Virus record (IMG/VR): IMGVR_UViG_3300046011_010503
Coordinates: 1-54,007 of that record
Source: a virus
Taxonomy: Duplodnaviria; Caudoviricetes
Length of the DNA stretch: 54,007 nt
Direction: 5' to 3' (one strand)
Shown: positions 2 to 53,604 of the stretch, one piece after another
Position numbering within the stretch: the first letter of the stretch is position 1
How the letters are laid out: each line of letters begins with the position of its first letter
Position numbers and translations under genes: made by a program
The notes under the pieces: generated by a model
Told to the model about the DNA's origin: nothing
Database searches by the model: none
Seen by the model: only the letters and a program-made list of their open reading frames with translations

Positions 2-3000
2 GCTGGGCATTGTGCCAGTGGTAAAGCTGCTCTTGCCGTTGCCCTGTGCCCATGCGCCAAACGGAAAGCATAATTCAAGGTCATTTATTGGAAGCCCGCC
101 AATTGAATCTTGGCTTGCCCCTGCATAAGGCGTAAACGATAGAGTGTCATATCTCTGTGGAAAGAACAAACCATTTGCATCAGTGTTCACATTATTGATA
201 TTCGGCATGTTTCCAAATCCGTAAATAAGCCTACCATTCGTACCTTTGAGAGTGTCAGAAGTATTGATCCTAAAAGAACTACCCTCACCAGTGGCCGAAA
301 CAATCCGTTTCTCAACCCCGTCAACGAAAATCTTTGCAGCCGACAGAGCGGTTGCGCTGCTGCTTGCGGTTCCGGTAGTGGTCAGAGAAACACCCCGTAG
401 CGTCGTTGTTCCTACTCCAGTAATCACTGGATAAGGCTGTATTGATCCATCAAACCATTTTATTACCCTACGTGCGGCAACCTGTCCGAGAGTGTCCTGC
501 CCGTACCAATCTACGTGTATAAGGTCCACTTTTTGTCCGTATCCCCAGCAGGCCGCAACCATATACCGCTGTTTGGTAAAATCCTCTAGCTCATAATGCG
601 CATCCTGTATAACCTGCAAATCATCATTTGGAATACCGTCCATGCGGGCAATCTGGCAAATAAACATCGGCATGGTGCCATATCCAACGTCCTCTTTAAA
701 CCAGCGGTGCAATGTGTCAAACTGCGCCTTATAATTTGCTTTGGTTACGCTGCGGCCAGCATCATTTTCTCCCTGGTACCATATCATCCCAATAAAATTA
801 GAGTCAACCCCTACCGCCTGCCGTATGTAATTGACTGACCGAGGGTATGCTCCATTTGTGCTATCAAAATGATCTGTATTGCCCCGATAATCCCAATTCG
901 ACGTTGTAGGAGATGGTTCCCAAAGTCCGGTTGATCCAACCGCCACGTTGATAATACCAATTGGCATTTTATACGTGTCAACCATCCTGCGGATAAACTG
1001 AGGTGCCATAGATGCCCCGTAGGACACACGACAAGGGTCGATATATCTAGTACTGGTCCAAGTCCCGTTTGTCCCGTTGCTGCTGCTATCTGAGGCTGTA
1101 TCACGTTCCGGTACGATGCTACCATACCCCGCAGCGTTGCTCTGTCCTGCAATCACCCATACATCGCCAATACCCCAGCGGTTTGTCTGTGCGGCCACCG
1201 TACCGTCTGACAGCCTCACAGAGCCAGTATACCAACATCCCATCGGTACGGTCAGGGTACAGGTATAAGCGCCGTCAGTCGGATTAGTTTTGATCGTTGT
1301 CCAGTCGGTCACAACATCGCCTGCGAGGTGTTTGATTTGCGCCTGTAAATATGTGGATTGGTTGGCGCTGCTGTCTTTACCAGTGAATACGATTTTCCGA
1401 GACGTGCCGCCAGGGATACCATTCGACTGTTTTCGCTGATAGATTGTGCGGACCGGAAAATCAGTAACAGTCACAGTCCATGGTTTAACCGTCAGCACCG
1501 CCGCACTGCTCGTCGTAGTCCCGTTATCATCCGTCACGGCGCAGGTGTAACTCCCGCCATTATCCCCGCTCACGAGCGCCACGGTAGTGTAGCTCGTGCC
1601 TGTTGCGCCTGTGATATTAGAGCCGCCAAGTTTCCACTGATACCCGAGCGTCCCGGTCCCCGTAGCCGCCACCGAGAACGTTGCCGTCTGCCCGACGTAG
1701 CGAGTTAGGCTCTGGGGCTGGGTGGTGATTGTGGGGCCTGATGAACCTTTAACATATAATCCGTTTAAAATCGTATCAGACGTTACGCCATCACCTATAA
1801 TAAAATCTACTAACCCAACATCCAATTTTGGCAGTAAAATTTTTATCAGCTTGTTTGTCCAGCTCGTAATTGTCGGTGTAGAGTCTCCTACTGTAATTGT
1901 TGATGAGCCTTGAGTATTGCCGAAAGCCCTACCGTAAAATTTTACTGTATCAAGATATGATGCAGAATCAGGCGCAACAGAATCAGCGTATACTATCCCG
2001 AAAGTTGAGGAAATAGTATCATAGGTTGAATCTGATTTAGTCTGTTTATACCATGCGATTATTTTTACTCCTGTTTTTGATACAACGCTTGTAGGAGTCC
2101 ACGAAATTACTCCAGTGGTTTTGCTGCCAGTTGCGCCGCTTGGTAAATTTGAAAATGTAAACGAATCAGCAGCAACAACACTACTTGGCGAATGAGTAGC
2201 TGCAACGTCAACAGTGTCAACTACTGGCGATGTATACGTGCCTGTCCACCCAACCACCGTTATTGTATCGTATGCGTCAGCGGTATTTGCACCAGCGCAG
2301 CTATACGCTCTAATTTGGTAACCTGCTTTTGCAGATTTAATTTTCCAATGATAGGAAACAGTATCTTTTGTCAACTTAGCGAGCATTACAGAGCTGTCAG
2401 GCCATGATCCAATCAGATTAATTGAGTCGTATGCGTTTGCTGTGGCATGCCCAAAGCGCCCGACATTACCTACCGTGTCAATTATTGTGGCGTGTCTGGT
2501 TATTGTTGATGGGGTGCATGTTACTAAATTACCACCCTCCCAATCGTCACAAACAGCAGATTCTCGCAATCTCAACCCGACCATTCCACTGTTAATAGGA
2601 GACGTTGCATCTTTGTATGTACCAATTAATGTCCCGTTGTAATAAGATCTAAGGGTGTCGTTTGATGCTGTTAATTTAATTACATCTCCACCTACGATCT
2701 CTGTCATTCCATAACTTTCCTTTTGATCATACGAACCACCAGTTACCTTGTACAAAATGAGATTGTATGCGTTAGGCTGATACAGCATATAATATGTACT
2801 GGCTGATGTGCTCATTCTTACTGCAACTGCGGCGGTTGTTCCTGATACTATTTTTATCTGAGAATATTGTGCATTATCTGGTGTGTTTGCGTTCCAATAC
2901 GCCTGATATGATCCAGAAGATGATTGCCCTCTAACAGTATTGGATACAATTCGTAAATCTCCATCGCTTCCGCTTTGAGTTGACCAGTTCCCGCCAATAG

Positions 3001-3085
3001 GATTAGCATCGGTTCTGTTAAAATCATCAGTCCACGAATAAGCATTCACACTAAATAGCAACAAAAACAAAATTAACTTTTTCAT
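2..3085 (-). CDS. Large (>1028 aa, 3'-truncated by window edge) signal-peptide protein with IPT/Ig-like domains and an SGNH sialate O-acetylesterase (SASA)-like domain; putative receptor-binding or surface protein
   Basis: Absent from the ORF track because no stop lies in the window. Hand translation from ATG 3085 gives MKKLILFLLLFSVNAYSWTDDFNR..., an Ig I-set-like segment (PTITTQPQS...YQWK...YTCAVT) and SGNH motifs IAGQSN, WYQGENDA, DLIH; the frame stays open to base 2. Confidence 0.85.
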   Translation of the reverse strand, partial: MKKLILFLLLFSVNAYSWTDDFNRTDANPIGGNWSTQSGSDGDLRIVSNTVRGQSSSGSYQAYWNANTPDNAQYSQIKIVSGTTAAVAVRMSTSASTYYMLYQPNAYNLILYKVTGGSYDQKESYGMTEIVGGDVIKLTASNDTLRSYYNGTLIGTYKDATSPINSGMVGLRLRESAVCDDWEGGNLVTCTPSTITRHATIIDTVGNVGRFGHATANAYDSINLIGSWPDSSVMLAKLTKDTVSYHWKIKSAKAGYQIRAYSCAGANTADAYDTITVVGWTGTYTSPVVDTVDVAATHSPSSVVAADSFTFSNLPSGATGSKTTGVISWTPTSVVSKTGVKIIAWYKQTKSDSTYDTISSTFGIVYADSVAPDSASYLDTVKFYGRAFGNTQGSSTITVGDSTPTITSWTNKLIKILLPKLDVGLVDFIIGDGVTSDTILNGLYVKGSSGPTITTQPQSLTRYVGQTATFSVAATGTGTLGYQWKLGGSNITGATGTSYTTVALVSGDNGGSYTCAVTDDNGTTTSSAAVLTVKPWTVTVTDFPVRTIYQRKQSNGIPGGTSRKIVFTGKDSSANQSTYLQAQIKHLAGDVVTDWTTIKTNPTDGAYTCTLTVPMGCWYTGSVRLSDGTVAAQTNRWGIGDVWVIAGQSNAAGYGSIVPERDTASDSSSNGTNGTWTSTRYIDPCRVSYGASMAPQFIRRMVDTYKMPIGIINVAVGSTGLWEPSPTTSNWDYRGNTDHFDSTNGAYPRSVNYIRQAVGVDSNFIGMIWYQGENDAGRSVTKANYKAQFDTLHRWFKEDVGYGTMPMFICQIARMDGIPNDDLQVIQDAHYELEDFTKQRYMVAACWGYGQKVDLIHVDWYGQDTLGQVAARRVIKWFDGSIQPYPVITGVGTTTLRGVSLTTTGTASSSATALSAAKIFVDGVEKRIVSATGEGSSFRINTSDTLKGTNGRLIYGFGNMPNINNVNTDANGLFFPQRYDTLSFTPYAGASQDSIGGLPINDLELCFPFGAWAQGNGKSSFTTGTMPS

Positions 3086-6468: not shown

Positions 6469-9400
6469 TTATTCACGGGAATATTTCAATTCGTCCAAGC
6501 GCTCCTTTTTCTCAATTATTTTTTGAATCTTCTGATCAACAATTTCTCGTTGCGCATCGGACATTTCCCCGTACTGCTCTGCGGAAATTTCTTTGTTTCC
6601 AAGGATCCCGCGGGCAACCCCGCCCGATATACTCATATCTTTCAAAGATCCGGCAGAGTAGAGGAGCCGGCGCCAATCGTCTTCTGTGCCAGTTATCAAT
6701 CCATACGCAGCTTGCGCGGTGTTTATCGGTTGCCTGGGCAGTAATCCGGTAAGCATTCCAGCGGCACCAACCGAAGCCTTAACAGCTTTTCCAACAGCCT
6801 CCCCGACATCGTCACCCTCTTTGGTGCCAATCGCCTTTTTAACGGCACCAGCAGCGCTGTAGAGTTCATCAGCAATATCCATCCATGGAATTTTAATGGA
6901 GGAACTGCCCTGGAATAGCGGTTTTGTTGGAGCGCCGCGCAATTTCCGGATCGGATCCGCCACCAGGTTTTTATATAGCCCATCCCCAATTTGATTGAAC
7001 AGCGGGAACGCTCCGTATATTTGCGACAAAATATAGCCGAGAAACCCTTCTGGATCATCCTTGAATTTCTCCGGATCAAAGGTGTCAACTGTAAATATCA
7101 GCGCTGCAGGAATAAGGCTGGTCATCATCACTGCAATGGCGGTTTTACTCAACCCGTTTTGCCGGGCGGTTCTCATAGTCTCGTACTGGGTGTTCATCGC
7201 TTTTGCCAAGTCAGAGGTAAACATTGTCAGATACCGTGTGAGCCCCTGGGAAGTTTGTCCGCGTGTCAGGTAGGCAAGCCCACCACCAGCAAAGCTCTTT
7301 TCGATGGCCTCGTCTGCGTTGCGTACCGCCTGCTCCTGGGGAATACCCTTGTTAATTTCCTCAGTGTATTTTGCATCCCACAATATTGAGCTCGATATCA
7401 TGTCGCTCGTAGAAATGCCCCACATTGAAACCTGGCGGATTTTATTCATAACTTCAGCTGTGGTGTTCAAGAACATGGTTGACTCATGCTTGTCGAACAT
7501 TTCCTGAATCTCTCGCTCAAAACGGGAATTGCGGTTTTTCATGAACAAGGATTTACTTTTAATGTCCTCAATCATATTCCCGCGCTGAGCCATCATTTTA
7601 AGCGCAGACTGAGCGAGCCGGGCTTTGTTTTCAACATACTTGCCACCAACGAAAAGAGAGCTCCACTGCTTTACCCAAGTTTTCGGATTCCAGCCCAGGG
7701 CATAGCACGAATAGTAATACCGCAGTGCATCCGCTGTTTTTGCAACAGCATCAGACCGTATTGCTTCAACCTTGCCATACGCCATTCTTTTGAGAAAATC
7801 ATTGGACCATGCTTTTGCGTCAAAATCCTTGTCGCGGTTGGCGAGAGCCTGGGCGACATCGTCGTAATTGAGAAATTTCCGAACATCCCTCACTGCCTCT
7901 GCATTGGCAACAAAATGTTCTGACTGGCGCAGGTTGGCGAACACCACACCCATATAATCCATTTCCCTGAAGGGCGCAGCGCTGCCCTGGCGGGCTTTGG
8001 TCATGCCCTTTTGAACGCTGGATTTATTTGAGAAGCGGGCAAGCATCTCAGAGAGCATAGAGTCTTCAACCTTCGCACTAAGAAGATTGCGGATCGGGAA
8101 ATAATTTTCTATCCTTGGCATATCAATCCCAAACAAACGACGGAAAACACCGTTCATTTTAGGGTACTGCACAACATCATAATACCGGTGCATTTTATCT
8201 ACAACATCTTTGGCTACCTCTGGTATAGTGTTCTCAACCTGCAACATCCCCTCCCGGGTCCATCCGGATCCGAACAAGTGTAGAATGTTTCCCTCATTTT
8301 TACTATTTGCATACACGAACATCATTTCGTTGAGCGTCAGTTCGTGAGTTTCGACACGCCCAGGTAGTGGTATTTTTCTGTCGTTTACCCCATCGGTAAA
8401 TTCTGCTTTGATTGCATACTTTAATGGTAAGCTCTTCATCGCATCTACTAGGGGTTTGTGAATTTCTCTAATGTGCTTAGTTGCCTTTATCATACTATCG
8501 ACGCTTTTGACCGACGCATCCCGAAGTTTATTCCAGGTATTTTGTTTAAATACCGACGCTTCCCGCCGGCCCGCTTCAGTGAAATTACCAGTAATCCACT
8601 CAATTACACGTTGTGGATCCATGGTGTCCATGAAGAATTCTTTTGCGTTTCTGGCAAGTCCCCGCTCTTTTCTTCCTAGCGATCGTTCGGCCAAAGACTT
8701 TTCGCTGTTTTTGGTAACTCTCCGGATCTCTACTCCAGCAAAGAAACCGTCACTCGCCAACTTTGCTGCAGCTTGGGCATCTGCCAGCATCTTGGCAGTT
8801 TTCCCAGTCCGCTCAATTTGTGTTAGCTCTGCCATTACATTTAATAAATCAGAGCTACTCATGCCGAGAAGATTTTTCTTGACCATCTCAGTAAGTGCCG
8901 CAAGTTCCTTGGAGTCGTATCCTAAAGCGTCTTCCGGATCAAAATTTTCTTTGTTTTGTTCCAGGGACGCCATCGCCTCCTCGTAGGCTTTTTCCTCTTT
9001 GGCGCTCATAAACATAAACTGGTCCAGATACTTTTCAACCGCCTCAGTGTGCTCCGCTGTCCAGGGCGCAGGCTGTCTTCCTGCCCGGGCTGCAGCAATG
9101 CGCTTGCGGGTGGCGTCAAATTTAAGCCGGACCTCTTCCAGGGCTTTGGCCTGCAGGCGCTTTTCCATTACAGTATCCATAATGTTGAGCGCTTTGAAGA
9201 AGTTCCTTGAAGTGCCAGTAGTGCGCAGCATGAGGGTGTCAACCTGGTTGCGGGGCTCTCCGACCAAGTTGATTTTGCGGGCATAGTCGTATATTTTCTG
9301 CTGAATCTCTTTGCGCTTGAGCTCTTTTTTAATTAAACCCTCGTGATGATATTTGAAATTCACCGCATCGCTATACATCTCATACTGCATCAGTTCTTTT

Positions 9401-12400
9401 TCAAGTTCGGCCCGGGTTGCAATATTGTCCCAGTGCTTTTCAAATAAAGGCCGGCGCTCTTCAGTTACCCCTTCAATATCTGGCACCTTAAAGCGGTCTT
9501 TAATGTACTGCGTGAGATCCTCGATCTGCTCCTGGGCGGCAATCTGTTCTGCCTTGGGGCGACGGAGTTTTGTGGAGACGTACTTTTTCTTGGGCACCGA
9601 TCCGTCGGGAAGGAGCTCTTGTTTTCTGCGGGCGAAGAGGGGTTGACCCTCGTGCATGACGGAATCGCGCATTTCGTCGGTGATGGTGATGGACTGCTGG
9701 GTTGGAGAATTTTTAATACTCCACTCTCTGGCCTCTTCTATGGTGTCAAAATGCGGTCCATCTTGCGTAATAAAATATCCACCACGGTATTTGTCCTGCG
9801 TTGGCATGGGCATGGCGTCACGACCAAGGGAGACTGGCTCAACCTTGGTTCCCCATTTTTTCCCGTACTTCTCGAAAAACTTGGGGATCTGCACGTCGTA
9901 GAGATTGTGGGCCCACTCTCCGCCGATTTTAAGATCTGTTCCTTTTAATATTTTTGGGCGATTATGCTCTGGTGACAGTACATAGTTTCGTGTGACATGG
10001 TCGGCCTCTCGTGCCGCATCCTCTTTTGATAAATATGTTCCTGACTCGGATCCATCCTGCCATTTAATGTACCATCTTCCATCTTTAAACACCTCACCAA
10101 CAGCGCTTCCTCTATTTGTGAAAAAGGAATAATCTCTTCTTTTATCAAACTCACCATCTCTATTGACAATTTTATTTGCCACATCTTTTCCAAAAATACC
10201 TGCCAATTCACTTTCAGGAACATTCATTCTATCAAGAATGTCCCTCCCTATTTTATCGGTAACATGAAAGTTGTATGTTCCGTCTGCATTTTTACTATGA
10301 TTTATAGATTCAGCAACTTTTGCGAGGTTATACCGGTCCGCAGTCTGCTCCCCATTAATCCACGCAACCCGGTTGTATCCCTCTTCTGCTGCCATGCGGA
10401 GAATGCGCTTGAGGGTGAGCTCTTGCCAGTTTTTGAGGAAGGGCTGGTTGGGAACACCCTTTAATTTCATGTTGTGGTTTAGGTCTATGAGAGCATTTTT
10501 TTTGGCAGACTCAATTGTGCCATTATATTCTTTCCAAACAATATTTCCACTTCCATCTTTAACGTCAATCCTTGTGTCCGACCATCCGTTTGGAGCCTCC
10601 TTGACAACAACTTCATTGAAGGTATAGTCAGAGGGCAATTCATTAACAGGATTTTGACGCACACCCTTATCTCTCACATCCCTCGCCCAGTCGCTCTGGA
10701 TCTCTTCGACAAAAAGAACCTTCTCGCCATTTGGACCGGTGCGATCGTCAAGGCGGGTGTGGGCAATGACGTTGGGTTCTTCCCAGTGGGAGGATTTGTA
10801 GCCATTCTCAACAACCTTAAAACTTTTTTCAGTGGCAGGGCGAACAACTTTTAATGGTAATGTCAGCAGCACTTCCCGGTAATTCTCTCCACCAGGGAGG
10901 GTGTATTGCTGGTACTTTGTTTCCACTTCTGCGCGCTCTCCACCCATGTCATTTTCGTTCGCTTCGACCATCTCATCAATCAGCTCTTGCCTTGTTGCGC
11001 CTAAAGGGATCTCCTGGTCCATATAGTTTTCATAATGCTCAGCAACCTCTTCATCGGACAGCCCTTCAAAGGGTATTTTTTTATCACCTTGTTTGTTATA
11101 TTTTTCCTGCACCGTTACCTGGTTCTGCCGAACAAAATCTTCAATCTCTTTTTTCGTGACGCTCTGCTTCCCCTTCAGGAAATCATCCAACCCCATCCAC
11201 TTCCACTCCGACTCTTTCACCCCTGGCGCTTTTGAGATCATAGCAAAGAACTGGTCACCGGTTCCGCGGTCCTGCTTGAGTGCTTGCACGGCTTTGAGGG
11301 TTGGAGAATAGAAGGTATCTGCGATCGGGCGCTGGAACAGAACGCCGTCAGTCATTTCAGATACCCGAGACTCAAGCTCTGACTCGGTGCGGGCTGCGAA
11401 GGTGTTGCCGTTTTTGTCGTTGAATAGTGCGGTGCCTGGGTATCCGGGTACCCCTTCCTGCATGCCGACAAAACTTAACCCGTATTCAGCGGCCAGGGTG
11501 CGGGCGTTTTGATCGTTGAGGGTGTTGTTGTTGCGCTGATAGCGGATATCCGGATTTGACGGATCGAATGCTCCAGTGTTGCCGGTGGCGGATTTGATTT
11601 GGGTTGTGGAAAATACTTTATACTCAATATCGTCCATGCTTTCGCCATTGCCCATGTGTATTGCACCATCATAGCCAGCATCTTTAAAATATCTAACTGC
11701 GTCAATATCATCAAAAACAAAATAAGCGTCAAGATATAATTCTTTTATTCTTTTCGGTGACTTCCTTAAAAGCTCTTCAACGCTACTATATTTTTCTGAA
11801 AAGTTTTCATCCCAATTGTTGGTAAGCTCTATTTGGTAACTATGTTTAATTGCGATTTTAATTGCCTTGTCAATACCAATCGCCTTTACAATGTCACCCA
11901 TCTCAACAAAGGGATCGTCTAAATTTTGGATAACAGGGTTTCTAATTGATAGGTATGCCGGGATTACCCTTGGTTGTTCAGCGGTTTTAGACAACTCCCT
12001 GTTATTAGGGCTTTCAGCATAGGTCGCTGCAGTTTCTGGATTATTAACAAAAGACACCGACCCCAGAGCGGTTTGAATAAGTGAGCTGGGCACATCTCCG
12101 ATTTCTTCAAGCAACGATTTTTCATCAGTTGTCGGTACTAAGTGCGTAGTGCGAACCTTAGTTCTTACTTTGCCATGCTCACCTCTATAAACCACAAGTG
12201 GTTTTCCGTTCTCATCTACCACCTTACTTGCATTCTCCGGATCGTTCTCCCAGTCGCCAAACCATCGCTTAAACTCGGCGGTACGTGTTTGATCCTGCTG
12301 CTGTCCAGAGCCATCCCTCATGAACAGAGCTTCCCTAACAGCCCCATAAAACTCTTCCCGGCTCGCTCCACGCACCGCTGCAGCCATCATCTTTACCATT

Positions 12401-15400
12401 TCACCCCGCACGGCCTGAGCGTCTTTAAACCACCCCTCTGACGTTCTACGGTAGACCTTTGCAGCGCGCAGTATCCGGTCAATCACTTCCGCGATTTTTT
12501 GCAGCAGCCGGCGTGCCAGTGGCTGAGAATACGCATGCACCGCATCCCAGAATTTCGGATCGGTCGAGCTGTCCGCCAGGTAGTTCGCAATCACCTCTTC
12601 AACGCCAATATCCTTCATGCCTTGGGTCAGCTCTTTTGATTTCATCAGGGAGCGGTACCACTCTGCCTCGCGCAGTGCAGCTGCGTTTCCGGAATCGGTA
12701 AACTGCTTCTGGAAAAAATCCATCAGGCGCGTTTTAAGGTATGGCTGCTTTGCGAAAATATCGTGCAGGACTTCATGCATTACCACGTAGACAGAGGGGT
12801 CAGTGCTGCTATCGTTGAGATAGACAACCCCGTTGTGGCGGAACCCGTTGAACATGTCGGAGAGCTTTTGCGCTTCTCTGGTCAGCTTAATGGTTTTGAT
12901 CGGGACATCAAAGACTCGTTGAGCCAGCCCAATAAAACCCGCGCTTTGTGGTGCTGCATCGACCACCTGAATATTTTCAGGTCCAATTGAAACGCCCTGG
13001 TTCGCAGCGGCTTTGGCAAGCGCAGAGATTGCGCCAAACTGGAAAGGATCTGCAGTTTTGCCCGGCTGCTCAGTTGAAAGTGTGGGGCGTCCTGATCGGT
13101 GGAATTGGGTGTCATTGGGGGATTGTTCTCCTCGTTGAAATCGAATGTCGGGATTGGATGGATTGAACACTCCAGTGTTGCCGGTTGCGCTTTTTATTTG
13201 GTTTGGGGAGAAAACCACATATTGGTCTTGAACTCCCCCGGCATCGTAATGATTTTTTAGTAAAATGCCATCAAAGCCCTCTTCTTTTGCTTTATTTATT
13301 ATTTCTGCACGCCCATATTTTCCACCCTTTAAATCAACAGTTTTTAATTTTTCTATGTTTAAATAAACTGGTTTTACCGATCCGATATTTTTAGATGGAA
13401 AAAGTTCATCATACCCAGAATATTTAGAAGCTATCTCTGGGTTTGTGGAAAAAAACATCCCTTGTTCACCCTTTACTTTATTTAATCCAGTTCTAAATTC
13501 TGTAAAATTCTTATCTGTCCCATGATACACCACCAACGGCTTCCCGCTCTCATCCACAACCTTGCTCGCATTTTCCGAATCGTTCTCCCAATCGCCAAAC
13601 CAGGCTTTAAATTCTGTGGTATAGATTTGAGATTGTTCCTTGCGCTGGAAGAGGGCGGAGGACTCGGGTTTTGTTATATTAACAATCCGAGCGTTCACCC
13701 CGGTCGTGTTCATCAATGTTTTGTCTTGAAAGGTGTTTTGCGGCAACTTCTCTTCGCTACCATTTACCTCTTCAAGCCAATCTCTAAAATCAGAGGCTTT
13801 TCTGTCTGACCGGAAAAAAGCTCCCTCTCCCATAATTGCAACGATTTTTCCGCCTGGCTTTAAAAGATCGTATGCGTGCCTTACGTGCTCGATGTCGGCA
13901 CCACCGCCAAAAGGAGGATTCATAACAATGGCGTCGTATCCTCCCTCGTTGTAATCCATAAAATTATGTTCGACAACATTATATCCTTTTGCTTGCAGAA
14001 GCTCCCTTAGGCTGCTGCTTATTTCGACAACGTCCGGCTTAACCCCTGCAGCCCTTATCGCATCGGCAATGTTTCCGTTACCCGCACTCGGCTCAAGAAC
14101 CTTCATCCCTTCGGTAATTCCAGCATCCCGAACCATTTGCTCTGCAACTGGTTTTGGTGTTGGGAAAAAATCTACCCCAACATTTTTACCGATAAGACTA
14201 CGCTCAAGCTCTTTTATTTTATCAACAACAGGAGCCTTACCCCGGTATTTTACATATTCTCTCAAAGCGGAAGAAAGCATTATTGGATTTTCAAAACCCA
14301 TTGTCTTTAAGCGCCTGTGGCGTTCAAGCGCATCAACAATCTGGTTGTATTTGGCATCATTTTCACTCAACAGACTGGTAAGTTTTTCCAGCGCATCTAT
14401 TTCCGACTGATCTTTAATTACCTGAATTCCGCTGTCCTTTCCAACTAATCTAAAATACAATTTTTTTATTGCCGCTTTAGACCCGGGCCTGCTCTCCACT
14501 TTCTTAAAGAGGTCACTCAAGTTTTCTGCCCACAAATTTGGATAATAAGCCTTTGACGCATTTAACTTATCAATTGTTTCTTCTGTGGCAGGTTCCCCTT
14601 CGTGCTTCTCTCGCTCGGAATATGTCGGGTATTTTAGATTAACCTCATTGCGTTTCGCTTCGTTAACTAATCCGTCAAGTTGCTCAATATGGGTTTTTGC
14701 GCTGACTCCATCAAGAAATTTAACCTCTCCAGCATCAATGGCAGCGGCGATGTTCAGCATCGTCTTGCCTATTCTCTTCTGTTTGTTAAGAGCGGCATCA
14801 GCGCTACTCGCCATTGCTGCCCGGCGGGCGGTGTTTGTTTGCCGGTCCTGGTTTAAGCCCTCGTCCGCTTTGGCAATTATTTTTTCGGCATTGGTCCTTA
14901 GCTTGTCGGCACGCTTTACTGTTTTAACAGTTTCCTTCTCGACAACAGCGTCGGCATTAGAAACGTCTCCAGACTTCAAAGCCATAAACTTTTCAGCTTG
15001 CGCCTTTTCCGTAAACTGAAATCCAGGGGTTGCACCATTGCCTTTGTAAGAAGAGTAATACCCGCCAAGCTTTTTAGCTTTGACGTTCAGGTCATTATAT
15101 ATTTCTCTGTCAACACGGTTATTTAGGCGCACGACAAACAAGTCGTGACCCTTCTGGGTGTGCTTTGTTTCTATGAGCTGCATGCCGGTGTCGCCAATGT
15201 CAACTTTCTCAACAGTTGAATCGTCAATCTTTTCCTCTTTTCGTTTTTCCTTTATATTTGTAGAGGTAAGATCTTCGTATGTCCGGCGCTGCTCTGGAGT
15301 TAAATCCTCAACTTTTTTATATTGAAGGAATGTTTTGAATTCTGCAAGTGTTTCAGGATTTTTAATGGCTTTTATTGTCGCCTGGCGCCGGGCAATGTAT

Positions 15401-18400
15401 TCTTTAGTGTTTTTGTCAACCTCCTCTGCAAAAGCATCAAGATCCTTTTGTGTTGTATTATCAACAATCTTTTTGACCGAATCAGCATAGGTCCCATTAA
15501 AATCATGCACAATTCCCCGGGATAACCCATAAGTACTAAGCATGCTGTGATAGATAGACGAAATCAATTCACTTTTATTTTCCCCTGGGCGCATGTACGA
15601 GGTGTAATTCGAATAAATTTTCTGAAGAGCATCTTTTTTATTGGTGGACAACTCTGCCTTAATGTTGTTTTCCGAATCAACCAGTTTACTAAAAGTCATT
15701 TTAAAATCATCTATTGACAATTTTCCGTTATAGAGTTTTTTCTTAGTTTCTGTAAATGCACTATAAGTCATCTTGCCTGGGACAATAACCGGATCAAATG
15801 CTTTTTCTTCTGTCTTTTCAGATTTCTGAGCTTGGACCGCTAAAGGTTCAACAATCGCCTCTTTTTTTGGTACTTCTTTCTCTTTTACAGTAGGAACATT
15901 TTTAAACAAATCCTCCTGCTTCGTAATCATCGCTTCCCGCTCGTTCGCATCAAACATCGGCAACCCCTGGAGCGAGACTGCAGGGCGGACAGCATCTTTC
16001 TCTCTCTGTTGAGCTTCGATCTTCTTTTCTTCTTGCGTCCTGGTGTCAGCAGCCTTTGTTCCTTCAAACAAATCCCCAGTCACCAGAGGACCTTTTTTCT
16101 GCTGAGGTGGAGCAACATTCTCTCCATTAAAAAGAGGCAGCCCAGCCAGGCTTGGACCTGTTCCGGAAAACATATCGGCCTGATTTGGATCATACCCGGT
16201 CTTGCGCTGAAAAAGAGTCGGCTCCTCGGATGTAGATTTAGAATACCGCTTTTCATATTCTCCAGCTTGGCGCGACATCTCGGCATAGGCTTTGTGCGCT
16301 GCCTCGTATTCGTTTTTTGCGGCTTTTATTTTAGAGCGGACTTCCGGAGTGGTTGGAAACTCCTTGACGAAAGCCACAAAGTCACTCGGGGTATTAAAGT
16401 CTTCAAGGGTAATTCCTGTTTTTGCAGTGAAATCTTTGTTTTCTACAAAGAAATCATGCATTGTCACATCAGCGCTCTGGGCACCTTTGCCACGATAATC
16501 AGAGGAATTTCCACCAGTTGCGAGATTTACGTCTTTTTGAGAAAAAGCATTGCGGTATTTCGATATTATTTTCGAGGCTTCGAGCTGTCCGGATAGTTCG
16601 TCAATGCGAGACGACAAAGAAACTACTGCTCCAGCTGCGGAGTCTCTTCTCTCAACAATCGATTTAAAGTGAGTCGCATCTTCAGCATGGACTCTCCCAT
16701 CTGTCGATCCAGATTTGACGAGCTGTTCAAGAGGTAGTGCAGATCCGGATCCTTTTCCTCTTTTGATAGGGGTTTTACTTTTGGTTTGTTCTGCGGTACC
16801 GGCTGTTGTTGCTTCTGCGGGGACTGCTGCGGAAGGCTCGGTTGCTGTCGGCTCTGCAGATGCGCTTCCACCATCTTTTTGTTCTGTTCCAACCGCTGCT
16901 GTGCTGCTTGCGGGTCCTTGGGCGGCACCGGGTCCAGGTACTGCATTTTGTACTGGTTCATACTTCTTATCCCCTTCAAAAGTTTGGGCTCTTCCGGCAT
17001 CCTTTGCTTTGTAAAGCTGATCGTCAGCAGCCTTTACACCTTCACCAAATCCAGCGGAGAACGAAACGCCGGTCAGTTTGCCATCATTAAACGGAATACT
17101 GCTTAAATCACTGCGGGCAGACTCGACACGTTGTAATATATCATCTTTCGAAACTCCTTGCTTGGGAATTATTAAAAATTCCTCGCCGCCATGCCGACCA
17201 ACGAATGCAATATCATTGAGTCTGTTTGACAAAACAAGTCCAGCGCTCTGCAAAACGTCATCTCCAACCTGGTGACCGTGAGAGTCGTTGACGTTTTTAA
17301 ATTTGTCCAGATCAAGCAGAACGACGGGAGGAGGGTTTTTATCCCCTTCCCGCATTGAGTATCCCATTTCGTACGCTGCACGATCAATCCCGGTTCTATT
17401 CATGAGTCCGGTGAGTTGGTCCGTCTCACTTGCTTTGTGAAGTTTTGCGTATTCAGCGTCTTTTTCTTCAGGTGTTAACGCTTTAAATTTGTCAGGAACA
17501 ATTATTGCCCGGTCAACTTTTTTGGCAGGCACGGCTTCAGCGGCACCCTCTTGAACTGCGGTAGGCGCAAACTCATCGGTGGGCGCCGGCGCATTATCCA
17601 CAACCGGCTCACCGATCGGACTTAACAAAGCTTGGGTTTCTTGACCTTTTTCATTGGCAACCCCTTCTGGTTGAGGTGTAGTAATAATTCCCGACTCCTC
17701 GGGGCTTGGTTCGTATGCCTGGATGATTCTGTCGGCTTCACTGTCTGAAAGCTGGGACTGTATCTTTCCCCTATCTTCCTGTGGAAGTGAATAAAAGGCT
17801 TCTGGTGATTCAATATCAAAATCACTTAATAACTTCTGTCCGCTAGGTCTCTGGGTCTGCGATTGTTGCGATGGAGATTTTGCGAGTTCGGCACCATCAG
17901 GAGTAAATTCAACTTTTGGCGCGGTCTCTCCCATCGTTGTGTATGGGCTTGTGTTTTGTTGAACCTGTGAACCATCTGACGGTTTTGTTTTTGGTAATGC
18001 CTTTTTAGTTAGGCGTGTTACTCCACCAATTCCAATATGCAGGGCCATGCTTGGGAGAGCTGCCAAAACAAAAGTCTGCAGGTTCTGCCCGCCGTTTTTG
18101 ACCAGGTCATCAACAATGGGTTGGTACTTCTCCGCCTTGCTAGGGTTGCTCTTTATTGCGTCCCTGACAGCCAACACGGAAAGATAGTCCTGGAGGTTCT
18201 GCTGAGTGACTTCGGTTGTACCTTCAACGAGACCAGCCTCTGCAGTTCCGGCAACCGCTCCGATCGCTTTAACCAAAACCTTTTTTGCCACACTGTTCGC
18301 AACATTCTTTGTGGCTAGTGCGGTAATTTTTTCAACGGTGGGTATTTTCTTAACCAGCTTTGAGGCGCTTGCCGCCCCTACGGTGACTAGTTCGCTCACA

Positions 18401-19494
18401 GACTCAAGAACTGTGGCAGGTATTGAATAATAGGTCCCGTACTTATTGAGTATCTCTGGTTCGTCAAAACCTTTTTTTATTAGCGGATCTGCAAAGTTTC
18501 CTTTTTCTATCATCTGCCCGCCGACTACCGGGAGCGCTGCGCTTGCAACAAGTTGGGGCAACATGTCTGCGGCAAGTATGGAAACTGCCTTGGCTGTCTT
18601 AAGCGTATTTGGCAGGGTCCAGGCTTCTTTCTTCATAGCCCACTCTTGCGCCCAACCAGTAGAAGGGGCGGAGTCTGTCGCCTGGTTTTTTACTACATCA
18701 GACATAACTCCTTTGGCATATTTGACATAGTCATCGCCGATACCCTCGTCATAAATAGGACCGCCTTTAGCGTCAGCCTTTGCTCTTTTGTCGAGGATAT
18801 TAATGGCATTAGCCTCTTCCATGAACTGGACATTTTTCTTATAGCTTTTCTTAATGGCGTCAACGAATCCGGCACCCCACGACGGCTCTTCCAATTCTGT
18901 TGAAACAGCTTCTTTTGGCATATACTGCTTAACATTAATCCCCATACTTGCCAGGGTAATTGGCTCCACATTAGGTTGCGACTCAGCCGCTGACTTCTGC
19001 CCTAACGAATCAGAGAGCTTTCCAACAACCCGGTCCACATAATCTGCAGTATAGGAAATGCCATCATAAAACCGAGGTGTGCGCGGCACCTCAAATACTC
19101 CGGTTTTCTGCATGTTATTCCAGACCTCTTGCGCTCCACTGGGTCCGGCGTGGTAATATATGGCAGCAAAGCGCGGGTCTCCACCGTATTTTCTTAAACC
19201 GTCCTCCAGGTACTTTTGAGCGTACCGGCGCGACACCTCTGGTTTGCGCTCGTAGTCGGGATCAAACGGCTCCCCGAGGCTCGCTGCAATCTCTGGGGCC
19301 GTGTCCGGCATGATTTGATACTGTCCGCGCGCGCCTTTTGGAGACCGGGAAGAGTTGGGGTTATTTCCACTCTCAACACCCCCGATAACGTCCACCAACT
19401 GATCGGCGTAGGCTATGGGAGCAATCTGAGAGGCATTCTGCTTTGGATAGTATACAGAGGGATCATAACCAAGGAGCTCTTTGAGAGTCGGCAT
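6469..19494 (-). CDS. Giant polyvalent virion/ejection protein (4341 aa): SLT lytic transglycosylase, GGDEF, N6-adenine methyltransferase, two ADP-ribosyltransferase-like domains, HExxH zincin, EEIQSD-motif domain, helical C-terminus
   Basis: VESG...GARGQYQIMP...YHAGP (SLT); DLDKFKNVNDSHGHQVGD and GGEEF; FFPTP/VLEPSAGNG/NPPF; two WFGDWEND...SKVVD.NGKPLVVY(H/R)G modules; HEVLH; located after tail/ejection genes. Confidence 0.9.
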   Translation of the reverse strand: MPTLKELLGYDPSVYYPKQNASQIAPIAYADQLVDVIGGVESGNNPNSSRSPKGARGQYQIMPDTAPEIAASLGEPFDPDYERKPEVSRRYAQKYLEDGLRKYGGDPRFAAIYYHAGPSGAQEVWNNMQKTGVFEVPRTPRFYDGISYTADYVDRVVGKLSDSLGQKSAAESQPNVEPITLASMGINVKQYMPKEAVSTELEEPSWGAGFVDAIKKSYKKNVQFMEEANAINILDKRAKADAKGGPIYDEGIGDDYVKYAKGVMSDVVKNQATDSAPSTGWAQEWAMKKEAWTLPNTLKTAKAVSILAADMLPQLVASAALPVVGGQMIEKGNFADPLIKKGFDEPEILNKYGTYYSIPATVLESVSELVTVGAASASKLVKKIPTVEKITALATKNVANSVAKKVLVKAIGAVAGTAEAGLVEGTTEVTQQNLQDYLSVLAVRDAIKSNPSKAEKYQPIVDDLVKNGGQNLQTFVLAALPSMALHIGIGGVTRLTKKALPKTKPSDGSQVQQNTSPYTTMGETAPKVEFTPDGAELAKSPSQQSQTQRPSGQKLLSDFDIESPEAFYSLPQEDRGKIQSQLSDSEADRIIQAYEPSPEESGIITTPQPEGVANEKGQETQALLSPIGEPVVDNAPAPTDEFAPTAVQEGAAEAVPAKKVDRAIIVPDKFKALTPEEKDAEYAKLHKASETDQLTGLMNRTGIDRAAYEMGYSMREGDKNPPPVVLLDLDKFKNVNDSHGHQVGDDVLQSAGLVLSNRLNDIAFVGRHGGEEFLIIPKQGVSKDDILQRVESARSDLSSIPFNDGKLTGVSFSAGFGEGVKAADDQLYKAKDAGRAQTFEGDKKYEPVQNAVPGPGAAQGPASSTAAVGTEQKDGGSASAEPTATEPSAAVPAEATTAGTAEQTKSKTPIKRGKGSGSALPLEQLVKSGSTDGRVHAEDATHFKSIVERRDSAAGAVVSLSSRIDELSGQLEASKIISKYRNAFSQKDVNLATGGNSSDYRGKGAQSADVTMHDFFVENKDFTAKTGITLEDFNTPSDFVAFVKEFPTTPEVRSKIKAAKNEYEAAHKAYAEMSRQAGEYEKRYSKSTSEEPTLFQRKTGYDPNQADMFSGTGPSLAGLPLFNGENVAPPQQKKGPLVTGDLFEGTKAADTRTQEEKKIEAQQREKDAVRPAVSLQGLPMFDANEREAMITKQEDLFKNVPTVKEKEVPKKEAIVEPLAVQAQKSEKTEEKAFDPVIVPGKMTYSAFTETKKKLYNGKLSIDDFKMTFSKLVDSENNIKAELSTNKKDALQKIYSNYTSYMRPGENKSELISSIYHSMLSTYGLSRGIVHDFNGTYADSVKKIVDNTTQKDLDAFAEEVDKNTKEYIARRQATIKAIKNPETLAEFKTFLQYKKVEDLTPEQRRTYEDLTSTNIKEKRKEEKIDDSTVEKVDIGDTGMQLIETKHTQKGHDLFVVRLNNRVDREIYNDLNVKAKKLGGYYSSYKGNGATPGFQFTEKAQAEKFMALKSGDVSNADAVVEKETVKTVKRADKLRTNAEKIIAKADEGLNQDRQTNTARRAAMASSADAALNKQKRIGKTMLNIAAAIDAGEVKFLDGVSAKTHIEQLDGLVNEAKRNEVNLKYPTYSEREKHEGEPATEETIDKLNASKAYYPNLWAENLSDLFKKVESRPGSKAAIKKLYFRLVGKDSGIQVIKDQSEIDALEKLTSLLSENDAKYNQIVDALERHRRLKTMGFENPIMLSSALREYVKYRGKAPVVDKIKELERSLIGKNVGVDFFPTPKPVAEQMVRDAGITEGMKVLEPSAGNGNIADAIRAAGVKPDVVEISSSLRELLQAKGYNVVEHNFMDYNEGGYDAIVMNPPFGGGADIEHVRHAYDLLKPGGKIVAIMGEGAFFRSDRKASDFRDWLEEVNGSEEKLPQNTFQDKTLMNTTGVNARIVNITKPESSALFQRKEQSQIYTTEFKAWFGDWENDSENASKVVDESGKPLVVYHGTDKNFTEFRTGLNKVKGEQGMFFSTNPEIASKYSGYDELFPSKNIGSVKPVYLNIEKLKTVDLKGGKYGRAEIINKAKEEGFDGILLKNHYDAGGVQDQYVVFSPNQIKSATGNTGVFNPSNPDIRFQRGEQSPNDTQFHRSGRPTLSTEQPGKTADPFQFGAISALAKAAANQGVSIGPENIQVVDAAPQSAGFIGLAQRVFDVPIKTIKLTREAQKLSDMFNGFRHNGVVYLNDSSTDPSVYVVMHEVLHDIFAKQPYLKTRLMDFFQKQFTDSGNAAALREAEWYRSLMKSKELTQGMKDIGVEEVIANYLADSSTDPKFWDAVHAYSQPLARRLLQKIAEVIDRILRAAKVYRRTSEGWFKDAQAVRGEMVKMMAAAVRGASREEFYGAVREALFMRDGSGQQQDQTRTAEFKRWFGDWENDPENASKVVDENGKPLVVYRGEHGKVRTKVRTTHLVPTTDEKSLLEEIGDVPSSLIQTALGSVSFVNNPETAATYAESPNNRELSKTAEQPRVIPAYLSIRNPVIQNLDDPFVEMGDIVKAIGIDKAIKIAIKHSYQIELTNNWDENFSEKYSSVEELLRKSPKRIKELYLDAYFVFDDIDAVRYFKDAGYDGAIHMGNGESMDDIEYKVFSTTQIKSATGNTGAFDPSNPDIRYQRNNNTLNDQNARTLAAEYGLSFVGMQEGVPGYPGTALFNDKNGNTFAARTESELESRVSEMTDGVLFQRPIADTFYSPTLKAVQALKQDRGTGDQFFAMISKAPGVKESEWKWMGLDDFLKGKQSVTKKEIEDFVRQNQVTVQEKYNKQGDKKIPFEGLSDEEVAEHYENYMDQEIPLGATRQELIDEMVEANENDMGGERAEVETKYQQYTLPGGENYREVLLTLPLKVVRPATEKSFKVVENGYKSSHWEEPNVIAHTRLDDRTGPNGEKVLFVEEIQSDWARDVRDKGVRQNPVNELPSDYTFNEVVVKEAPNGWSDTRIDVKDGSGNIVWKEYNGTIESAKKNALIDLNHNMKLKGVPNQPFLKNWQELTLKRILRMAAEEGYNRVAWINGEQTADRYNLAKVAESINHSKNADGTYNFHVTDKIGRDILDRMNVPESELAGIFGKDVANKIVNRDGEFDKRRDYSFFTNRGSAVGEVFKDGRWYIKWQDGSESGTYLSKEDAAREADHVTRNYVLSPEHNRPKILKGTDLKIGGEWAHNLYDVQIPKFFEKYGKKWGTKVEPVSLGRDAMPMPTQDKYRGGYFITQDGPHFDTIEEAREWSIKNSPTQQSITITDEMRDSVMHEGQPLFARRKQELLPDGSVPKKKYVSTKLRRPKAEQIAAQEQIEDLTQYIKDRFKVPDIEGVTEERRPLFEKHWDNIATRAELEKELMQYEMYSDAVNFKYHHEGLIKKELKRKEIQQKIYDYARKINLVGEPRNQVDTLMLRTTGTSRNFFKALNIMDTVMEKRLQAKALEEVRLKFDATRKRIAAARAGRQPAPWTAEHTEAVEKYLDQFMFMSAKEEKAYEEAMASLEQNKENFDPEDALGYDSKELAALTEMVKKNLLGMSSSDLLNVMAELTQIERTGKTAKMLADAQAAAKLASDGFFAGVEIRRVTKNSEKSLAERSLGRKERGLARNAKEFFMDTMDPQRVIEWITGNFTEAGRREASVFKQNTWNKLRDASVKSVDSMIKATKHIREIHKPLVDAMKSLPLKYAIKAEFTDGVNDRKIPLPGRVETHELTLNEMMFVYANSKNEGNILHLFGSGWTREGMLQVENTIPEVAKDVVDKMHRYYDVVQYPKMNGVFRRLFGIDMPRIENYFPIRNLLSAKVEDSMLSEMLARFSNKSSVQKGMTKARQGSAAPFREMDYMGVVFANLRQSEHFVANAEAVRDVRKFLNYDDVAQALANRDKDFDAKAWSNDFLKRMAYGKVEAIRSDAVAKTADALRYYYSCYALGWNPKTWVKQWSSLFVGGKYVENKARLAQSALKMMAQRGNMIEDIKSKSLFMKNRNSRFEREIQEMFDKHESTMFLNTTAEVMNKIRQVSMWGISTSDMISSSILWDAKYTEEINKGIPQEQAVRNADEAIEKSFAGGGLAYLTRGQTSQGLTRYLTMFTSDLAKAMNTQYETMRTARQNGLSKTAIAVMMTSLIPAALIFTVDTFDPEKFKDDPEGFLGYILSQIYGAFPLFNQIGDGLYKNLVADPIRKLRGAPTKPLFQGSSSIKIPWMDIADELYSAAGAVKKAIGTKEGDDVGEAVGKAVKASVGAAGMLTGLLPRQPINTAQAAYGLITGTEDDWRRLLYSAGSLKDMSISGGVARGILGNKEISAEQYGEMSDAQREIVDQKIQKIIEKKERLDELKYSRE
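11535..12295 (-). repeat. ADP-ribosyltransferase-like module, copy 2
   Basis: EFKRWFGDWENDPENASKVVDENGKPLVVYRGE...EYKVF...QIKSATGNTGAFDPSNPDIRYQ. Confidence 0.7.
13135..13625 (-). repeat. ADP-ribosyltransferase-like module, copy 1 (conserved flanks shared with copy 2)
   Basis: EFKAWFGDWENDSENASKVVDESGKPLVVYHGT...FFS...QIKSATGNTGVFNPSNPDIRFQ. Confidence 0.7.
13670..14180 (-). other. N6-adenine DNA methyltransferase domain of the giant protein
   Basis: DFFPTP, VLEPSAGNG (motif I), VMNPPF (motif IV, NPPF at 13909-13920). Confidence 0.85.
16980..17430 (-). other. GGDEF diguanylate cyclase domain of the giant protein
   Basis: DQLTGLMNR, DLDKFKNVND.HGHQVGD, RHGGEEF (GGEEF at 17176-17190), SFSAG, ADDQLYKAK..GR. 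Confidence 0.92.
19010..19390 (-). other. SLT (lytic transglycosylase) domain of the giant protein; boundaries approximate
   Basis: Catalytic ES motif (GVESGN), GQYQIMPDTA, YHAGP. Confidence 0.85.
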
Positions 19495-41060: not shown

Positions 41061-41430
41061 AATTCACCGCCTTTTTTGTGTGTTCCCCATCATCAATAGA
41101 ATGAAAATGTCTGTTCGGGTGCTCCCCCTCAACAAATTCCAGCAATGCAGTATTTGCCACATCGACCAGGTGTTCAAGATTGCCGGTCTGCACGTATTTG
41201 TCCAGGCGTCTCCGGATTGATGCAACCCTATCATATCTTGGCTTTGCCGGGTCGCCAAGCAGCCCATACCGAAAAGCGCCCATCACCAGCCGATTGCGCA
41301 TGAGCGTTTCGAATTTTGGGCTCCACTCGGATTGCTGCAGAGATTCCAGCGCAGGAACCTGGCGCGGCTTTTCCTCATCCATACCGGCCAGCACTCGCCA
41401 GGCATTGCGCAAAAAATCAGCACCGGTCAT
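41053..41430 (-). CDS. Conserved phage protein, possibly all-alpha NTP-pyrophosphatase-like
   Basis: GAFRYG...GNLEHLVDVAN..LLEF. Confidence 0.5.
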   Translation of the reverse strand: MTGADFLRNAWRVLAGMDEEKPRQVPALESLQQSEWSPKFETLMRNRLVMGAFRYGLLGDPAKPRYDRVASIRRRLDKYVQTGNLEHLVDVANTALLEFVEGEHPNRHFHSIDDGEHTKKAVNYE

Positions 41431-42050
41431 TGCGGCACCACCAAATCATCAAACACCACCGGCAGCAGCTGTTTGAATCTCTCCAACATCGGCACCGTTA
41501 TCTCAAGCATCTGCGGGTGAGGCTTCCCACTAGTACCAACGGTACGCAATCTGAAGAAATGCCGCCACTGCCGGAGGTTGTAGGTGCAGACAATTTCTGT
41601 TTTGAGCGAGTTAGGTAGCACCGCCCGGGCCTGTTGCGGGGAGGCTCCACCAGCCAACAGGTCCAGGTATGACGTCTCGGCAATTGCCATGGCTGCATAC
41701 CACAGAACAAAATTGGGGTGGCTATCATCCCAGAAACAGGGCTTAATAAATTCAACCCCGCCACTATAATTGCAGTACCTCGTTGACTCCTGGGAGTATG
41801 ATCCTATCCGGTGCCGAACCAGCTCGTGGGACACCCCGCGATCACAGATTATTTTGACAGAGATAGATTGGTGCTCCAGCACTGACTCGTGACCTCGGGA
41901 GATCAGGTTTTTGACAAATTTTAAACTGCCATCTGCAGTATGCCTATCTTCAGACTTGTAGCACACTCGACCAGCAACTTCAATATCCCTCAACATTTGC
42001 TCGTGATTGATCCATGTCAGTATCTCAAATCCTGCATTTACAATTTTCAC
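41427..42050 (-). CDS. thyX: FAD-dependent thymidylate synthase
   Basis: GHESVLEH, RGVSHELVRHRIGSYSQESTRY, ARAVLPN, NLRQWRHFFRLR, HPQM. Confidence 0.95.
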   Translation of the reverse strand: MKIVNAGFEILTWINHEQMLRDIEVAGRVCYKSEDRHTADGSLKFVKNLISRGHESVLEHQSISVKIICDRGVSHELVRHRIGSYSQESTRYCNYSGGVEFIKPCFWDDSHPNFVLWYAAMAIAETSYLDLLAGGASPQQARAVLPNSLKTEIVCTYNLRQWRHFFRLRTVGTSGKPHPQMLEITVPMLERFKQLLPVVFDDLVVPQ

Positions 42051-42065
42051 AACTCTCCGCCTTTG

Positions 42066-42689
42066 TTAGAATTTTTTTCCGCCGTGTTTGTGGCCTCTGT
42101 TTTTATTGAACTCGTTTTTTGCAATGATAGCTTCAGCCACTCGCAAGTGCTCCTTTTCTGCGTAATCCATAATTCTGATTACCACATCTGCAAGCTCTTC
42201 CTCAATTCCTAAAAAATCAGGGATATGGTCAGAGTGCAAAAGAGTGCCATTGCGTGCCCACTCCAAAGCCTCGCTCAATTCAGAATGACACAACGCAATA
42301 AAGGCTGGAAAGTTGATTGTGCTTTCGTGCCATCCGTTGTCTACAGATGTTAGGTAGCACTGGAATTGCTTTTTGTTCCAAACCTCCAGAAAGGCGTCTG
42401 CTGATTTTGAAAGGTTAATGCCGGCAGCTTCTAATATTTCCTTTTTTCTCTTCTCAAGCGCCGACTTAACCCATTCATTCCAGGCAAGCACCAGGTCGGC
42501 TGGTTTTGTGCCAGAAAACTCTTTGCCACATTGTGAGCATTTTATTATATACGCTACGCTTCCCACTTGAGGGTAAACACGAGCAGAGCACTTTAGGGAT
42601 TCTCCGCTGCAATAGCATTTTTTTGCAGTGTTTTGAATTTCGCTAATAATGTCAAGAACATCGCGATAACCTTCTGTGTGTTTGTTCAC
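42066..42689 (-). CDS. Zn-ribbon plus MazG-like nucleotide pyrophosphohydrolase
   Basis: CYC...CSQC...AWN; IALCHSELSEALE...EEELADVVIRIMD...KNEFNKNRGHKHG. Confidence 0.8.
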   Translation of the reverse strand: MNKHTEGYRDVLDIISEIQNTAKKCYCSGESLKCSARVYPQVGSVAYIIKCSQCGKEFSGTKPADLVLAWNEWVKSALEKRKKEILEAAGINLSKSADAFLEVWNKKQFQCYLTSVDNGWHESTINFPAFIALCHSELSEALEWARNGTLLHSDHIPDFLGIEEELADVVIRIMDYAEKEHLRVAEAIIAKNEFNKNRGHKHGGKKF

Positions 42690-53595: not shown

Positions 53596-53604
53596 ATTGC
53601 ACCT

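Follow-up and report, generated by a model that had tools for sequence, protein, structure and literature searches.

What happens to a phage protein that holds several unrelated enzyme domains in a single chain is the question raised by the viral stretch IMGVR_UViG_3300046011_010503 (54,007 nucleotides; Duplodnaviria, Caudoviricetes), the whole of which is called the window here. A giant open reading frame on its minus strand (6469..19494) encodes a protein of 4341 residues, P0001, in which a short peptide of the form [LR][FY]xR recurs between the domains. The original prediction took this peptide for a functional signal, the cleavage or handling site of a self-processing polyprotein, and took a zincin-like HExxH domain embedded in the same chain for the peptidase that reads it. 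That the peptide is a signal is upheld by four of its properties: it marks module seams, its protein sequence is under selection, it follows many types of module, and it varies in step between seams. The assignment of the zincin as the reader is not upheld. The comparisons described below suggest that the seam peptide is real and probably a recognition signal, and we lean towards the reading that it is recognised by one factor co-evolving with it (the reader), most likely as a site of cutting or handling.

The positions predicted for the seven sites in P0001 were reproduced, as were those of HEVLH in the zincin-like domain (residues 2240-2244, 12763-12777) and of the downstream EE (residues 2299-2300). 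The sites are, in the order of the protein:

16204..16215, minus strand: site 1, LFQR, residues 1094-1097, preceding a long low-complexity linker
13642..13653, minus strand: site 2, LFQR, residues 1948-1951, in the linker behind the methyltransferase (MTase) module, at a homology breakpoint
13132..13143, minus strand: site 3, RFQR, residues 2118-2121, with 151 alignment ends at about residue 2124
12316..12327, minus strand: site 4, LFMR, residues 2390-2393, between the zincin-like domain and the second ART-PolyVal (ART) domain
11533..11544, minus strand: site 5, RYQR, residues 2651-2654, in the tail of the paralogous ART, with 32 alignment ends at about residue 2655
11329..11340, minus strand: site 6, LFQR, residues 2719-2722, after a 64-residue segment without assigned function
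9628..9639, minus strand: site 7, LFAR, residues 3286-3289, at the end of the EEIQSD module, with 7 alignment ends at about residue 3285

Relatives of P0001 were collected with residues 1740-2740 as query. Of 1730 candidates scored, 1129 giant proteins passed E<=1e-5, and the comparison used the 120 best, one of which (P0002) is a 2603-residue copy of P0001. Pile-ups of alignment ends in an all-against-all BLASTP comparison (P0001 against 119 other giants) served as markers of module ends. By this measure the proposed location at domain boundaries holds for five sites (residues 1948, 2118, 2651, 2719 and 3286), which lie on pile-ups of alignment ends or starts, and LFMR 2390 falls between the zincin alignments and the second ART; the site at residue 1094 is left without comparative support, with no comparable motif there in the three relatives that cover the position. 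At site 2, where the confidence of the structure model (predicted local distance difference test, pLDDT) is about 53, 65 alignments end at about residue 1950 and 123 start at about residue 1955, and the corresponding position in relatives reads P-[AML]-F-[SQ]-R. The zincin alignments stop ahead of site 4 (at about 245-265 of the 272 query positions) and 35 alignments begin at about residue 2401. Around site 6 there are 8 ends at about residue 2720 and 9 starts at about residue 2721, and in P0262 an RFQR stands ahead of the sequence that follows this site. Site 7 has counterparts reading PLFSR, PLFQR or PMFSR in P0028, P0048, P0107, P0110 and P0003 and in the further relatives P0249, P0251, P0288, P0291, P0299 and P0313. 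Two more matches to [LR][FY]xR, LYFR at residue 1679 and RFER at residue 3991, were missing from the original prediction, and neither lies at a module end. The C-terminal ...KYSRE was considered as an eighth site and dropped, because giants rarely have such a motif close to their end (3 of 121).

The motif is far more frequent in P0001 than its composition would give (analytic Poisson expectation), with 9 matches to [LR][FY]xR against 1.8 expected (P 1e-4), 5 to LFxR against 0.54, 3 to LFQR against 0.024 and 5 to [LR][FY]QR against 0.079. No tripeptide that occurs at least four times is more enriched than FQR; four further tetrapeptides likewise occur three times in the protein, and RFQR and RYQR are not independent since they belong to the tails of two paralogous ART domains. 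The codons differ among the seven sites, and a DNA-level repeat or gene conversion as the origin of the motif in this phage was therefore rejected. It is the protein sequence of the seam peptide that is conserved, and not the DNA sequence.

In the relatives it is FSR rather than FQR that is enriched (184 against 64 expected). The enrichment at domain boundaries of homologues, on which the original prediction depended, was found: 60% of the 202 matches to hydrophobic-[FY]-[SQ]-R in the 121 giants lie at homology breakpoints, where the values for random positions and for eight control motifs are 8.7% and 9-17%. Counted the other way, 78 lineage representatives have 449 breakpoints, and 48 of these carry the strict motif, compared with 1.1% of windows placed at random. 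Grouped by similarity, the segments ahead of the motif form 50 groups and comprise at least eight unrelated module types, the group sizes being 82 for ART, 31 for MTase, 21 for a further group, 9 for a group linked to LPD37 (which ends in FYSR about 30 residues past the Pfam LPD37 domain) and 4 for the EEIQSD module. A second set of 106 proteins, selected solely for the zincin domain, repeats the pattern with additional upstream contexts. The form P-hydrophobic-[FY][SQ]R is enriched 11.8-fold in the giants chosen by ART and MTase (38 against 3.2 expected) and 11.7-fold in the independently chosen zincin set (18 against 1.5 expected), with no enrichment of the reversed motif in either set (1.0-fold).

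Among 49 distinct junctions not formed by an ART, a low-complexity stretch of A/G/D/E is followed by P (47%), A, M or L, F (76%) or Y, S (86%) or Q, and R, after which come small residues and then a stretch rich in P/G/A/T. The family consensus is P-[A/M/L]-[F/Y]-[S/Q]-R, with mostly L/R-F/Y-Q-R in P0001; the flanking linker residues are not conserved and F, S/Q and R are. The idea that the motif is an N-terminal leader of the ART domain was rejected, as an ART start follows only 12 of 109 distinct junctions; 9 of the 19 motif-rich proteins in the second set have no ART.

Comparison of two seams within the same protein points to a common reader. The MTase end was recognised from its last strand, which is conserved, and the ART tails from an anchor, so that the motif itself was not used. 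A motif at the MTase end predicts a motif at the ART tail (10/2/9/17 lineages, odds ratio 9.4, p 0.013), and in 16 of 34 lineages the tripeptide of a protein's ART tail is found again in the linker at the MTase end of the same protein, where permutation gives 5.8 (0/20,000 permutations). The recurrence persists when FSR is left out (8 of 34 against 0.77, 0/20,000), the variants being FQR (P0001, P0033), ESR (P0013, P0039), FSK (P0026, P0103), LRT (P0057) and NFG (P0066). A narrower comparison of S versus Q within proteins was not significant: 29 of 37 cross-family pairs agreed, where 26.2 were expected (P 0.18). Both seams follow unrelated folds, and the simplest reading of their agreement is one reader with a specificity that drifts with the lineage.

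These data also bear on a passive origin of the motif, in which linkers are inherited or copied together with module cassettes and the peptide, having no function, is a trace of shuffling. The proteins are indeed highly mosaic, and module insertions and deletions can have their end points at the motif: the Pseudomonas aeruginosa prophage protein P0072 has an ART (...DILFSR|SGLRE...) that H66 gp60 lacks (...PQFSR|SGLRE...), and the end point lies exactly at the FSR, which is retained in both. A copied linker would not, however, be expected to vary in its flanks while keeping F, S/Q and R, to use different codons at the sites, to change in step at non-homologous seams or to show no enrichment of the reversed motif, and we regard this explanation as very improbable.

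The ART tails show which part of the peptide belongs to the seam. In the AlphaFold2 model of residues 1940-2135 (mean pLDDT 85) the block FNPSNPDIRF at the ART end is ordered, with a mean of 91; behind the Phe of RFQR, from Gln-Arg on, pLDDT drops to 53, and it is below 50 for residues 2122-2153. This indicates that R-F in RFQR, and R-Y in RYQR, are part of the ART fold and that only [SQ]R is linker. Free-standing ARTs keep the ...NPDIR[FY] ending, and 15 of 103 such tails stop within 3 residues beyond it (some of them maybe cut by contig ends). Behind the aromatic end of the ART tail, [SQ]R is found in 49 of 90 cases in giants and in 1 of 67 free-standing ARTs, which, together with the few giants that end near a motif, ties [SQ]R to the presence of a downstream module.

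A signal confined to seams with a module behind them is most economically explained as a cut site. The alternative is a motif that is docked to or handled and stays uncut, an anchor for a partner in procapsid loading, in threading through the tail or in refolding in the host. Variation in step shows that a reader is shared but says nothing of its action, the motif lies exposed in linkers, large relatives are present in virions as a single annotated gene product, and the virion RNA polymerase (RNAP) of phage N4 is described in the accessible text of Iyer et al. as packaged uncut (PMC5512222). On the other hand, a tag carried by each module should be present on free-standing ARTs, where it occurs in the single case among 67, and on the last module, yet only 3/121 giants end near one; restriction to seams with a module behind is what a separator predicts. 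An uncut docking motif is therefore possible but, in our estimate, unlikely.

As for the reader, the original prediction had the embedded zincin (residues 2154-2389) cutting its own chain at [LR][FY]xR and so freeing the effectors. From its conservation the zincin-like domain is a genuine HExxH...E family with a predicted peptidase role: 107 representatives were found at E<=1e-3 among 1.84 billion proteins, mostly within proteins of 1000-5000 residues, HExxH is retained in 102 of 106 homologues, H119, E120 and E179 do not vary among 21 sequences, in at least 90% of which H123 is kept, and in the AlphaFold2 model HExxH lies on a helix (112-128) that comes after strands. HExxH is moreover enriched 16-fold across the giants (105 against 6.6 expected), in several distinct sequence contexts. 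The zincin of P0001 is flanked by RFQR and LFMR, and general annotation of the 54-kb genome saw no head protease and recognised no second protease, which leaves the embedded zincin as the sole candidate recognised. Processing of this kind has also been proposed for polyvalent proteins in general (Iyer et al. 2017, PMC5512222, accessible text).

The distribution of motif and zincin speaks against this assignment. HExxH is lacking in 35 of the 66 motif-bearing giants and in 24 of the 33 with at least two junction motifs, motif and HExxH being negatively associated (odds ratio 0.30, p 0.003, with no correction for descent), and Pfam gave no peptidase domain in 12 motif-rich proteins without HExxH. 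Conversely, 63 of 106 zincin carriers are motif-free, and the zincin is flanked by a motif upstream in 7 and downstream in 7. Selecting proteins for the zincin makes no difference to the enrichment of the motif, and five of the eight lineages with variants other than FSR have no HExxH. Nor did fold searches confirm a peptidase fold: Foldseek with the zincin model (pLDDT 76) gave no PDB match at E<=1e-3, its weak top rows being anthrax lethal factor (E 0.11) and ZMPSTE24 (E 0.82), and helical bundles (Z<=8.5) took up the list of the VIA wide search. A complex prediction of the zincin (alignment A2, residues 33-272) with a 32-residue linker around LFQR-1948 scored 0.00 twice, without controls, and counts neither for nor against. 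Self-cutting by the zincin is, on these grounds, quite unlikely.

Several observations weigh against recognition and cutting at the seam peptide by any reader. A cleavage product has been seen for no member of the family, and the searched literature gave no proteomics of termini. The motif marks only about 11% of the breakpoints, although many of the 449 are merely alignment gaps within domains. The N-terminal 1093 residues of P0001 are without motif despite holding at least two domains, H66 gp60 is nearly motif-free (one QFSR), and a 2668-residue Vibrio phage protein has no motif at its MTase end. Two of the seven sites are partly structural, with R-F within a folded ART tail. The lineages compared for variation in step are related, and the permutation tests ignore shared descent. 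A Pro follows the motif Arg at residue 2723 and in several relatives, and Pro after Arg would hinder a trypsin-like cut directly after the Arg. Finally, the N4 virion RNAP, ArdC and TraC1 travel uncut according to the accessible text of Iyer et al. (PMC5512222).

Recognition by one co-evolving reader nevertheless remains the reading that we favour, and it can be placed on the layout of the protein, for which the following features were assigned:

19120..19401, minus strand: N-terminal SLT lytic transglycosylase, residues 32-125 (Pfam PF01464, E 8.6e-10)
16987..17427, minus strand: GGDEF diguanylate cyclase, residues 690-836 (Pfam PF00990, E 4e-24; NCBIfam TIGR00254)
15895..16203, minus strand: low-complexity linker, residues 1098-1200, with five [DP][LM]F repeats at residues 1107, 1120, 1141, 1179 and 1195
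13654..15960, minus strand: MTase module, residues 1179-1947, with the S-adenosylmethionine-binding core at residues 1794-1906 (Pfam Methyltransf_23)
13138..13554, minus strand: ART-PolyVal domain 1, residues 1981-2119 including the tail ...FNPSNPDIRF (Pfam PF18760, residues 1981-2110)
12328..13035, minus strand: zincin-like domain, residues 2154-2389, with HEVLH (12763-12777) and, downstream, an invariant Glu at residue 2300 (12595-12597) as candidate third ligand
11539..12216, minus strand: ART-PolyVal domain 2, residues 2427-2652 including an insert and the tail ...FDPSNPDIRY (PF18760, E 9e-12, residues 2427-2643)
9640..11328, minus strand: EEIQSD-holding module without assigned function, residues 2723-3285
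6472..9627, minus strand: C-terminal structural part, residues 3290-4341 (the last 1052), with phrog_9880 at residues 3481-4271

P0001 would accordingly resemble an internal virion protein of the T7 gp16 type, in which an N-terminal transglycosylase and a C-terminal ejection region enclose an array of cargo, here the GGDEF domain, the MTase, two ARTs, the zincin-like domain and modules without assigned function. Between the cargo modules the short linear peptide would stand in flexible linkers or straight after the ...NPDIRF tails of the ARTs, where a single reader evolving together with it would recognise it; the chain would be cut, or at least handled, at the peptide, so that the cargo modules separate after packaging or ejection. 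A more specific version, which we put forward tentatively and hold somewhat less probable than its opposite, is a tunable junction code, with one peptide for the cargo seams of each protein (mostly FSR, FQR here, and ESR, FSK, LRT or NFG elsewhere) and a dedicated, so far unrecognised reader that is not the HExxH domain. Such a reader might be a protease of a new kind within the protein's conserved part, a different protein of the virion or an exploited host enzyme, and its specificity would shift along with the junction code.

The MTase module matches phrog_15406 (E 9e-210, residues 1179-1959), and in relatives the EEIQSD module ends in ...MR..hydrophobic..G.P-[LM]-F-[SQ]-R. The C-terminal part has tblastn matches to large proteins of Vibrio and Caulobacter podophages and is probably an IVP-D-like ejection region, a placement taken over from H66 gp60. 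Pfam and NCBIfam gave no family for the HExxH region (residues 2122-2393), the EEIQSD module or the C-terminal part, and a PDB sequence search with residues 1952-2722 gave no match. In the GGDEF domain the GGEEF motif is intact (residues 769-773), which, inside an ejection protein, suggests a cyclic di-GMP synthase that would be delivered with the phage DNA; PF00990 is also present in the relatives P0026, P0069, P0101, P0109, P0115 and P0116.

Some further sequence features touch on the seam motif or the zincin. Directly after LFQR-1094 the linker contains the words DMF, PLF, DLF, PMF and DLF within 90 residues; DLF, ELF or DIF words are found in the same zone of relatives, some of which read ...LPMFENxD..EGSQQTL-[MA]F[QS]R, and the [DP][LM]F words may be a second linear motif sharing the hydrophobic-Phe core. 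The conserved start of a helix in the zincin-like domain, SQPLARRLL (12502-12528, minus strand, residues 2323-2331), holds a P-L-A-R-R that resembles the seam motif, and reads P-[LM]-F-Q-R in P0271, P0278, P0299, P0327 and P0335; the likeness may be due to chance or may reflect a built-in pseudo-substrate. The relatives P0006 (6240 residues) and P0041 (5812 residues) have 8 and 9 HExxH sites, mostly as HE[ILV]QHxhQxxEGFaxGG, and at least seven ART domains each, the tail being ...SILSQ in most copies and ILHQ in one per protein, which looks like a different, internally uniform junction style.

The window is a phage contig with genes for the small and large terminase, a P22-type portal, a beta-helix tail spike and a tail protein with an SASA-esterase domain, and P0001 lies between tail-spike genes and unannotated structural open reading frames downstream of the portal. 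With at least two unrelated effector or enzyme domains (SLT, GGDEF, MTase and two ART-PolyVal by Pfam) in a phage context, and with the signature domain ART-PolyVal (PF18760, E 1e-30), P0001 is by its domain content a polyvalent internal virion (ejection) protein, probably injected with the DNA. Pfam models for LPD or MPTase-PolyVal had no match in P0001, and relatives carry LPD37, LPD38, LPD39 and MuF_C. A megablast of the P0001 region against phage records gave no match; among cultured phages the closest MTase modules are those of the F116/H66 group (57% identity), H66 gp60 sharing the module. The record of H66 gp60 (3787 residues) states that it was verified as part of the virion by mass spectrometry, and the accessible text of Hardies et al. 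2016 (PMC4819975) counts it among the T7 IVP-D family, with the IVP-D part joined to domains whose action must be intracellular. The 2811-residue polyvalent protein gp47 of phi24B has been proposed to be a capsid-packed ejection protein in the part available of a 2026 preprint.

Elsewhere in the genome, ThyX (41427-42050, minus strand), a radical SAM protein (42686-43714, minus strand), a methyltransferase (43711-44328, minus strand) and a Mom-family protein (52846-53709, minus strand) give a hint, from gene content, of base modification of the phage DNA. The tail protein at 2-3085 (minus strand), which runs off the contig end, combines Ig-like domains with the SASA sialate-O-acetylesterase domain; the phi24B preprint, in the same available part, connects SASA domains with NanS-p, the esterase family of the phi24B decoration protein gp84.

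Compared with known systems, P0001 is like the polyvalent proteins of Iyer et al. 2017 (PMC5512222), which in the accessible text likewise combine ART-PolyVal, MTase, zincin-like and lytic modules in one chain, are delivered with the DNA and are proposed by the authors to be processed by metallopeptidases. That accessible text (PMC5512222) names no cleavage or junction motif, whereas a specific seam peptide can be defined for the P0001 family. The peptide does not track the zincin, and the zincin of P0001, unlike those of Iyer et al., has no match to the Pfam MPTase-PolyVal model. The motif is described in no paper within the searched literature, although the external alignments of Iyer et al. 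might show the ART tail. The T7 IVP-D family (H66 gp60 and N4 gp50; PMC4819975, accessible text) is similar in having a huge virion protein with an IVP-D part joined to intracellular domains. P0001 differs from H66 gp60 in having an N-terminal transglycosylase as well, and H66 gp60 has hardly any seam motif.

Two other kinds of junction peptide are instructive. In viral polyproteins and in phage head cargo (T4 gp21 and phiKZ gp175 sites) the junctions share one consensus that is read by one protease; the genome of P0001 has no recognised head protease, its seam peptide follows another consensus, and cutting is only proposed. In polymorphic toxins, demarcation motifs such as the VENN before CdiA-CT are short peptides at which variable cassettes are joined and exchanged. 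Motifs of the VENN type mark a single junction before the terminal toxin, whereas that of P0001 stands at several seams inside the chain, with variation in step between them.

Polyvalent proteins are regarded as the earliest weapons that a phage delivers, and the seam peptide bears on how an enzyme chain of about 480 kDa becomes active in the cell. A defined peptide gives the general proposal of processing exact, mutable positions, and the data on the seams shift attention from the built-in zincin to another reader. Trypsin itself cleaves after Arg, and a cut after the motif Arg would for that reason be invisible to tryptic proteomics; if the cut falls there, this blind spot may partly explain the absence of reports. 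Should the junction code prove true, it would provide exact sites and mutants for the idea of 2017 that polyvalent proteins are dismantled after delivery.

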